Below are positions 54,285 to 55,536 of a stretch of DNA of 64,000 nucleotides, one piece after another (positions within the stretch are counted from its first letter, which is position 1; each line of letters opens with the position of its first letter). Origin of the DNA: Dehalococcoidia bacterium (GTDB lineage Bacteria > Chloroflexota > Dehalococcoidia > Lucifugimonadales > G963668185); assembly GCA_965249225.1 (NCBI GenBank), contig CBDFLT010000007.1, positions 198,213 to 262,212 of the forward strand, in the 5' to 3' direction. Made by a program: the position numbers and the translations under genes. The notes under the pieces are model-generated. The model searched no databases, was not told where the DNA came from, and worked only from the letters and a program-made list of their open reading frames with translations.

Positions 54285-55046
54285 CTACACAGGCTTACTG
54301 AGCTGCTCCTCCTCCCATTCGTTGTCCACGTCCCCGGCGTAGAACCTTTCGGGGTGCTCGACCGACATCATCTGCACGCGGATGATGTAGTTGTCGGGGT
54401 CCAGCTTGACGCCCTTGCGCCACTCGGCCATGGCCTCATCCAACTTGCCGGCCCGATAGAGATCGAGTCCCTTCTGGTAGAAGGTATTCGACTGGGAGTG
54501 GTTGGGTCCCAGGTCCGTACTCTCTTGGCCGTTGGTCCCGTCCAGGCTGCCGCCGGTGGCCCAGTTCTCCACAACCGCCTTGGTGTCGGCGTTCCAGACC
54601 TCGAACGAGGCCAGCTCCTTGTACTGAACGGTCCCGCGCTCGTCGATCAGAAAGCCGTTGGGTACGGCCTTGAAGCCATAAAGCCGGCCCAGCAGGTTCT
54701 CCTCGTCTACGACGGTGGTGAAGGTGACTCCAGCCCTCTCAACGTATGGCCGTGCTCTGTCGGCGCCCTGGGCGTCTACGGCCACCGAGAGGACCTCAAC
54801 GCCGCTGTCCTTGTGCTTCTCGTAAAACTGCTGCCATACAGGCAGCTGCTCGCGGCAGCTTCACCAGGAGGCCCATGTAAAGAGGACCACTCTCTTGCCC
54901 CGGTAGTCCGAGAGGCTCACCCGGTCTCCGTTGAGAGAGGGAAGGGTGAAGTCGGGGGCCTCGTCGCCTACGTTTACAACGCCCGATATAAGTGTCGTTA
55001 TTTCATACCTCGCTTGCGGTCCAGATTCCGGTCCGACCGGAGCCAA
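54285..55046 (-). CDS. TlpA/redoxin-like thiol-disulfide oxidoreductase with C-terminal TPR-like segment and in-frame UGA in the active site (putative selenoprotein)
   Basis: Track ORFs 54861..55046 and 54285..54785 are in the same frame and joined by the TGA at 54863-54861: ...[35 protein letters not shown]-[U][29 protein letters not shown]... The only in-frame start before APDF is TTG 55046. Confidence 0.6.
54825..54851 (-). promoter_or_regulatory. SECIS-like stem-loop downstream of the redoxin UGA
   Basis: GAGCA-GCTGCC-[UGUAU]-GGCAGC-AGUUU. The core is 6 bp with a flanking extension, and the apical loop lies at +21..+25 from the UGA. Confidence 0.4.
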
Positions 55047-55055
55047 CGGCCCCGG
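55037..55055 (-). promoter_or_regulatory. SECIS-like stem-loop downstream of the glutaredoxin-like UGA
   Basis: CCGGGGC-[CGUUG]-GCUCCGG is a 7-bp stem including one G-U pair. The loop starts at +17 from the UGA. The stem-loop overlaps the TTG start of the next gene. Confidence 0.4.
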
Positions 55056-55283
55056 CTAGAAGCTTCAACCGACCCCGTGAAAGCCGACGGTGACCTGGTC
55101 TCCCTCGACCATGACCGGCGTAATCCTCTCGCCGTCGGTCAGCTTCTCAACCGTGGCCCATTCTTCGGGATTGAGGGAGAGGTCGATGGCGTCGTACTCC
55201 GTTTCCGCCTCATCCAACTCACCTTGAAGAGCAGCAGAGTACGAGCAGTCCGGGTGGGTATATACGACAATCCTGTTGGCCAT
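55056..55283 (-). CDS. glutaredoxin/NrdH-like small redox protein ending ...GVG-U-S-F-stop (putative Uxx-star type selenoprotein)
   Basis: MANRIVVYTHPDCSYSAALQGELDEAETEYDAIDLSLNPEEWATVEKLTDGERITPVMVEGDQVTVGFHGVG. This is followed by TGA (55067-55065), AGC, TTC and TAG (55058-55056). The N-terminal motif is C-S-Y-S rather than CxxC. Confidence 0.55.
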
Positions 55284-55411: not shown

Positions 55412-55487
55412 TGGTGGAGATAGGGGGACTCGAACCCCCAACCTCGGCATTGCGAACGCCGCGCTCTCCCAGTTGAGCTATATCCCC
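55412..55487 (-). tRNA. tRNA-Ala (anticodon CGC), CCA encoded
   Basis: Hand-folded cloverleaf: GGGGATA-TA-GCTC-AACTGGGA-GAGC-G-CGGCG-TTCGCAA-TGCCG-AGGTT-GGGGG-TTCGAGT-CCCCC-TATCTCC-A-CCA. The G3:U70 alanine identity pair is present. Length 76 nt. Confidence 0.9.
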
Positions 55488-55506: not shown

Positions 55507-55536
55507 ATTATATAGACGCCGCTGATTTTGTGTCAA
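55507..55536 (-). promoter_or_regulatory. sigma70-like promoter for tRNA-Ala (TTGACA-18 nt-TATAAT)
   Basis: Plus-strand tgtcaa at 55531-55536 and attata at 55507-55512, about 20 nt upstream of the mature tRNA 5' end. Confidence 0.5.

Follow-up and report, generated by a model that had tools for sequence, protein, structure and literature searches.

The stretch of DNA analysed here (the window, 64,000 nucleotides) belongs to a SAR202/Dehalococcoidia-type MAG of 2.04 Mb (9 contigs, 60% GC). On its minus strand, a short glutaredoxin-like gene is followed by a hairpin and by a gene for a ResA-like redoxin, and the following features were assigned.

55056–55283, minus strand: predicted coding sequence of a UXX-star family 2 glutaredoxin/NrdH-like selenoprotein, 75 aa (translation with TGA = U; NF041211; PF00462; AlphaFold2/Foldseek)
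55283–55281 and 55058–55056, minus strand: ATG start and predicted real stop (TAG) of the 75-aa UXX-star coding sequence
55236–55247, minus strand: N-terminal active-site motif C13-S-Y-S (CxxS), with C13 and S16 invariant in an alignment of 53 sequences
55065–55067, minus strand: in-frame UGA, predicted to encode Sec as residue 73 in the motif G-V-G-U-S-F-COOH (aligned TGA and Cys codons in relatives)
55037–55055, minus strand: putative bacterial SECIS hairpin, 8-bp stem CCGGGGCC/GGCUCCGG with loop GUU (bSECIS constraints; covariation; restriction to Sec forms)
54285–55046, minus strand: ResA-like redoxin gene with a W-A-S-W-U-S-C motif and C-terminal TPR (translation; Pfam AhpC-TSA, Redoxin and TPR; UGA at 54863–54861)

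As called, the first gene is a 72-codon ORF at 55283..55065 (−) with the sequence MANRIVVYTHPDCSYSAALQGELDEAETEYDAIDLSLNPEEWATVEKLTDGERITPVMVEGDQVTVGFHGVG, which starts with MANRIVVYTHPDCSYS and whose product ends in VTVGFHGVG before the in-frame TGA at 55067–55065. On the same strand, the TGA is followed by AGC (55064–55062), TTC (55061–55059) and TAG (55058–55056). A sequence-only reading of the region had described precisely this 72-aa ORF with its TGA and the three codons behind it, and every detail was correct on re-reading; the redox motif C-S-Y-S lacking a second Cys, which it had also noted, was found at 55247–55236 (−). In almost every database entry, the gene caller has ended the protein after 72 aa, so that the gene is called three codons short here and in nearly all database relatives, and by this the family-defining residue is lost from the annotation.

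To score the 75-aa product against HMMs, Cys was substituted for Sec. The sequence-only reading had pointed to an NCBIfam family named "Uxx-star" and had proposed a search against its models. The family does exist as NF041211 ("UXX-star (seleno)protein family 2", an equivalog model with a curated cut-off of 100 bits), and the product matched it end to end, scoring 122.3 bits when the C-S-F tail was included and 112.8 bits as the 72-aa form. The parent subfamily NF041212 was matched with 91.3 bits (cut-off 66). The layout G-V-G-TGA-AGC-TTC-TAG puts the predicted Sec third from the C-terminus, with the GxG[U/C] context of UXX-star proteins. The nearest database relative is 76% identical, and NCBI already names Dehalococcoidia proteins with about 63% identity (P0096, P0120) as UXX-star family 2. 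UXX-star family 2 (NF041211, GxGU motif) is treated as a known selenoprotein family in a 2026 review (PMC13188914), a passage of which credits the UXX-star family to Haft & Tolstoy 2025 (mSystems). Judged by these matches, the gene is an ordinary, under-called new member of this already described selenoprotein family: it resembles the family in the full-length match, the G-x-G-U motif, the position of Sec and the glutaredoxin-like fold, and nothing essential differs, this copy being called as a 72-aa ORF.

A glutaredoxin-like thioredoxin fold was indicated by PF00462, AlphaFold2 and Foldseek alike. The generic domain PF00462 (Glutaredoxin) was the sole Pfam domain seen (28 bits vs 22.9), and in the NCBIfam profile search the models of NrdH, mycoredoxin and classical glutaredoxins all scored far under their cut-offs. 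The AlphaFold2 model, built on 53 homologues, reached a pLDDT of 93.3 with the tail included and ordered, and showed a beta-alpha-beta-alpha-beta-beta topology without a C-terminal helix. The nearest solved folds found by Foldseek were the NrdH redoxins of Escherichia coli (1h75) and Mycobacterium tuberculosis (4hs1), with a TM of about 0.71, and Grx structures were also matched. NrdH proteins are similar in fold and size, and a profile search placed the V-G-F of the protein on the W-S-G-F of the NrdH signature. On the other side, the protein has CSYS where NrdH has CVQC, VGFHGV where NrdH has WSGFRP, and the short G-V-G-U-S-F tail in place of the C-terminal helix of NrdH. An identity as NrdH was rejected, as TIGR02194 gave 30.6 bits, far under its cut-off of 85.75, and neither CVQC nor WSGFRP is present.

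Relatives of the gene were compared in 101 genomes of the same taxonomic order and, as a second and independent sample, in 80 GTDB species that all carry the label Dehalococcoidia, SAR202 or Chloroflexota. A match above the family cut-off was obtained in 65 of the 101 order-level genomes. Among the 66 rows past the cut-off, a single in-frame TGA was reported for 51 and none for 15; two of these 15 proved to be U-x-x-stop on inspection, which gave 53 Sec against 13 Cys forms. Among the 80 species, the codon at Sec73 was TGA in 73 and a Cys codon (TGC or TGT) in 7, and TAA or TAG was found there in none of the 80. Cys/Sec pairs were consequently present in both samples, with a Cys codon in 7/80 loci and in 13/66 order-level matches. 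All 73 Sec forms of the 80-species sample read CxxS...G-x-G-TGA with exactly two sense codons between the TGA and the stop; their tails have S/T/N/A as the first and F/Y/M as the second residue, and TAG, TAA and TGA all occur as stops. One order-level relative has four codons after the TGA instead of two. All seven Cys forms among the 80 species read CxxC...G-I-G-Cys plus 3–4 residues, and Cys homologues keep the same x-[FYM] tail after the aligned Cys. The sequence-only reading had asked whether a U-x-x-stop or C-x-x-stop end recurs in homologues; such ends, as U-x-x-stop or C-x-x(-x-x)-stop, did recur, whereas the pattern that it had named as contrary, homologues ending in ...GVG with non-UGA stops, did not appear in the 80 species.

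Some genomes (among G001–G004, G026, G044, G079 and G091) contain two family members. G001–G004, which belong to the family of the present genome, have a Cys form (CTIC...GIG-C-T-F-Y-stop) together with a Sec paralogue (CPYS...GMG-U-[STA]-M-stop) that is followed by a hairpin. In other genomes, tandem Cys paralogues were found, CGYT...GIGCYG-stop and then CTIC...GIGCTFY-stop.

The hairpin downstream of the gene has its arms on the minus strand at 55055–55048 (CCGGGGCC) and 55044–55037 (GGCUCCGG), with GUU at 55047–55045 between them. It begins right after the TAG, 9 nt past the UGA, and the loop G lies 17 nt after the UGA. The 7-bp stem-loop reported by the sequence-only reading at this distance was thereby confirmed; drawn with 7 bp, the structure has a CGUUG loop, and drawn with 8 bp its loop is GUU. 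The fold energy was −13.9 kcal/mol for the core alone and −18.5 kcal/mol for an extended form, the stem of which spans 55060–55032. The constraints described for bacterial SECIS elements are a loop of 3–9 nt with a G as first or second nucleotide, an upper stem of 4–16 bp, a distance of 16–37 nt from the UGA and an MFE of ≤ −7.5 kcal/mol (PMC13188914). The hairpin falls within all four, with the loop GUU, an upper stem of 9 bp in the extended form (8 bp in the core), 17 nt and −18.5 kcal/mol. Folding of the single sequence gave a weak signal in this 60% GC genome (z = −1.27 against shuffles), and a loose bSECIS model was passed by 40 of 200 long ORFs of the genome that end in an ordinary TGA stop. 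With such a z-score and a background of 20%, we base the case for a SECIS on covariation and on how Sec forms differ from Cys forms. Only 2 of the 200 ordinary TGA stops have an equally stable hairpin at so short a distance.

The 80 loci were surveyed over 48 nt for a perfect hairpin with an energy of at most −6 kcal/mol. The results showed such a hairpin in 69 of the 73 Sec forms and in one of the seven Cys forms. The loops of the relatives (GUU, GUC, CGUGA and similar) contain GU in all but one case, and with one exception they begin 19–26 nt from the U of the UGA. Covariation was tested for the 7-bp helix in an alignment of 25 Sec-form 3′ ends. In this alignment, 91.4% of the cells were paired, 37 cells were compensatory, both sides had changed in six of the seven pairs, and the observed covariation score was reached by none of 500 shuffles; when the 3′ partner was shifted by 1–3 columns as a control, pairing fell to ≤58%. 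By these comparative data, the hairpin pattern is judged to lie far beyond chance. A terminator was considered and rejected for the hairpin, as no T-run lies 3′ of it and the terminator scan flagged no site there. An Rfam scan of the whole window at the gathering threshold returned tRNA-Ala alone and no curated SECIS family.

We identify the hairpin as a predicted bacterial SECIS. Since only two codons follow the UGA, the element would be situated wholly in the 3′ UTR, a position forced by the architecture of the family. Mammalian thioredoxin reductase, which carries its Sec close to the C-terminus in a Gly-Cys-Sec-Gly tail and has been expressed recombinantly in E. coli with a SECIS after the stop codon, is comparable in that the recoding hairpin must lie past the stop. 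Bacterial SECIS elements are normally found inside the coding region, and a location in the 3′ UTR is unusual (PMC13188914).

The capacity of the genome to decode Sec was examined by the genome-wide check for sel genes that had been proposed along with the earlier reading. The genes selA (544 bits), selB (336 bits) and selD (385 bits) were all found past their curated cut-offs on contig C9, and ARAGORN detected a tRNA-Sec with anticodon UCA, reported as tRNA-SeC(tca). The set generally expected of a selenoprotein-producing genome, SelA, SelB, SelD and tRNA-Sec, is thus complete. Since TGA also serves as a normal stop codon in this genome, at the end of 423 of 1079 long ORFs, the code is standard and TGA is not globally reassigned. 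Two further selenoprotein genes were noticed in the genome: a Sec-containing SelD with an in-frame TGA in SCAGUASK (C9:148702-149622, +), and another glutaredoxin-like selenoprotein gene with the active site U-G-P-C (C9:759517-759705, −).

It is almost certain that the TGA annotated as the stop of the 72-codon glutaredoxin-like gene codes for selenocysteine. Our main reading, to which we assign a probability of about 0.9, is that the gene encodes a 75-residue UXX-star family 2 selenoprotein with a thioredoxin fold of the NrdH/glutaredoxin type, in which the UGA is predicted to be read as Sec. In the proposed mechanism, SelB with Sec-tRNA(Sec) would bind the hairpin in the 3′ UTR while the ribosome stands at the UGA, leading to the insertion of Sec73; Ser and Phe would then be added and translation would terminate at UAG. 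When selenium is short, the 72-aa product without the tail would presumably be made.

The ResA-like gene lies directly downstream on the same strand, and its in-frame TGA splits the annotation into two ORFs. Its best NCBIfam match was NF041054 (WAxxUGC), with 147.6 bits against a cut-off of 300, and by this curated test the protein is not a member of that family. It resembles the NF041054 proteins in the W-A-S-W-U-x-C site, with one residue between Sec and Cys, and in the redoxin fold, and differs from them in having 253 aa with a C-terminal TPR, whereas the model covers 354 positions. The UXX-star gene has a ResA-like gene as its immediate downstream neighbour in 10 of 30 order-level and 34 of 80 species-level loci, this neighbour being missing from over half of the latter; where the motif could be read, the TGA of these neighbours was always at the same place. 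This recurrent adjacency makes the ResA-like U-x-C/TPR protein the best candidate for a redox partner, and it is the probable operon and redox partner of the UXX-star protein.

The sequence-only reading had suggested that a Sec near the C-terminus could supply the second Cys missing from the N-terminal motif. This idea was backed by the distribution of active sites in the 80-species sample, in which all 73 Sec forms have CxxS and all seven Cys forms have CxxC, an association that is correlative and in which the forms are phylogenetically non-independent. One evolutionary event, or a few, may be all that lies behind the split, the Cys forms possibly being one clade, and CxxT or CxxS is also found in more distant Cys paralogues. 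The association fits a role in which Sec would make the second active-site Cys dispensable. The WSGF motif of NrdH lies near the active site. From the invariance of C13 and S16, the occurrence of CxxS with Sec and CxxC with Cys, and the position of the tail after the WSGF-aligned segment, we infer that Cys13 pairs with Sec73. The flexible G-U-S-F tail would fold back and bring Sec73, in place of the second Cys of a CxxC redoxin, into a selenenylsulfide bond with Cys13 in the CxxS motif. Next, the protein would exchange reducing equivalents with a partner, in this genome most likely the ResA-like U-x-C/TPR selenoprotein encoded downstream. For this selenenylsulfide redox chemistry with its transfer to or from a partner, we consider the odds slightly better than even. 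Mammalian thioredoxin reductase likewise has a Sec near the C-terminus in a flexible tail, and a selenenylsulfide shuttle is the chemistry proposed here; the two families are unrelated, and the proposed partner thiol is the N-terminal active-site Cys in the present protein and the neighbouring tail Cys in the reductase. As a more tentative proposal, which we hold to be somewhat less probable than its contrary, the UXX-star and ResA-like proteins may form a dedicated cytoplasmic two-selenoprotein relay in SAR202/Dehalococcoidia, in which the C-terminal Sec would act as the resolving Cys, with CxxS plus U standing for CxxC plus C, and selenium supply would gate the expression of both proteins. 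If so, what the relay acts on would be new to the redox biology of marine Chloroflexota.

Alternatively, the UGA may encode Sec, and Cys13 and Sec73 may constitute a metal- or metalloid-binding site for a chaperone or detoxification function rather than a redox relay. This explanation contests only the chemistry and not the reading of UGA as Sec, so that its odds overlap with the 0.9 given above. Metal ligation has been suggested as an alternative role for the Sec of UXX-star proteins (PMC13188914). In 6 of 30 order-level loci, the gene immediately upstream, on the same strand, encodes a heavy-metal P-type (P1B-type) ATPase with CPC and DKTGT motifs, which hints at a metal-related role in some lineages; neither the window nor any of the 80 closer loci showed such a neighbour. 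The commonest neighbour is a selenoprotein of the thiol-disulfide oxidoreductase type, and redoxins typically show this fold and an alternation of CxxS and CxxC. We regard a metal site as unlikely.

A second alternative, that the TGA is a genuine stop, would leave a 72-aa monothiol glutaredoxin-like protein, and the hairpin would be a terminator or a regulator of the downstream translation start. It is consistent with the frequent use of TGA as a stop in this genome, with the 72-aa length of most database entries, and with the fifth of ordinary TGA stops that pass the loose SECIS model. The position of the downstream start also speaks for it, since the only canonical in-frame start of the ResA-like gene here, TTG at 55046, lies inside the hairpin loop. 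In relatives, by comparison, translation of the ResA-like gene begins at an ATG that has a strong Shine-Dalgarno sequence and lies 57–73 nt after the UGA and 25–50 nt past the hairpin, and the hairpin is present with or without a ResA-like gene downstream. A genuine stop would also leave unexplained why the Cys codons of relatives align with the TGA and are followed by the same x-[FYM] tail, with TAA or TAG never at this position, and why the two codons after the TGA are conserved as S/T/A/N/D and then F/Y/M. Moreover, the hairpin is lost where TGA is replaced by TGC or TGT (kept in one of seven Cys forms), and it stands at a fixed distance to the UGA with a GU loop and no T-run. We consider a genuine stop very improbable. 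Near-cognate decoding of UGA as Cys or Trp occurs at low levels in bacteria, and the last and least probable explanation, that the UGA is recoded as Trp, Gly or Cys by such read-through or that the TGA is an assembly error for TGC, is opposed by the same TGA in 73 of 80 independent assemblies, by the complete Sec machinery and other selenoprotein genes in the genome, by a SECIS-like, covarying hairpin, and by the wide use of TGA as a stop.

The overlap of the predicted SECIS with the start of the ResA-like gene was also considered as a conserved coupling device, and was rejected as a general one in view of the ATG of the relatives, which lies well past the hairpin. The site homologous to this ATG reads ATA here (55001–54999, −), 6 nt after a GAGG at 55011–55008. 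It could be a non-canonical start, the start could have moved into the hairpin, or the ATA could be an assembly error.

As the UXX-star family is already curated in NCBIfam and covered by the 2026 review (PMC13188914), the finding adds little new biology. Three points are sharpened by it, namely a predicted natural bacterial SECIS located entirely in the 3′ UTR, the split between Sec/CxxS and Cys/CxxC forms, and a second selenoprotein gene often linked downstream, and together they lead to a concrete hypothesis for the function of UXX-star proteins in the abundant marine SAR202 bacteria. For the biochemical function of UXX-star, the conserved pairing of the two selenoproteins is a lead.

Upstream of the UXX-star gene, a tRNA-Ala(CGC) gene at 55487–55412 (−) is preceded by a perfect sigma-70 consensus at 55536–55507 (TTGACA, 18 nt, TATAAT; 12/12 matches). 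Such a tRNA adjacency to the UXX-star gene was seen in only 1 of 80 relatives. The selenoprotein pair is located 128 nt downstream of the tRNA-Ala on the same strand and may be co-transcribed with it.
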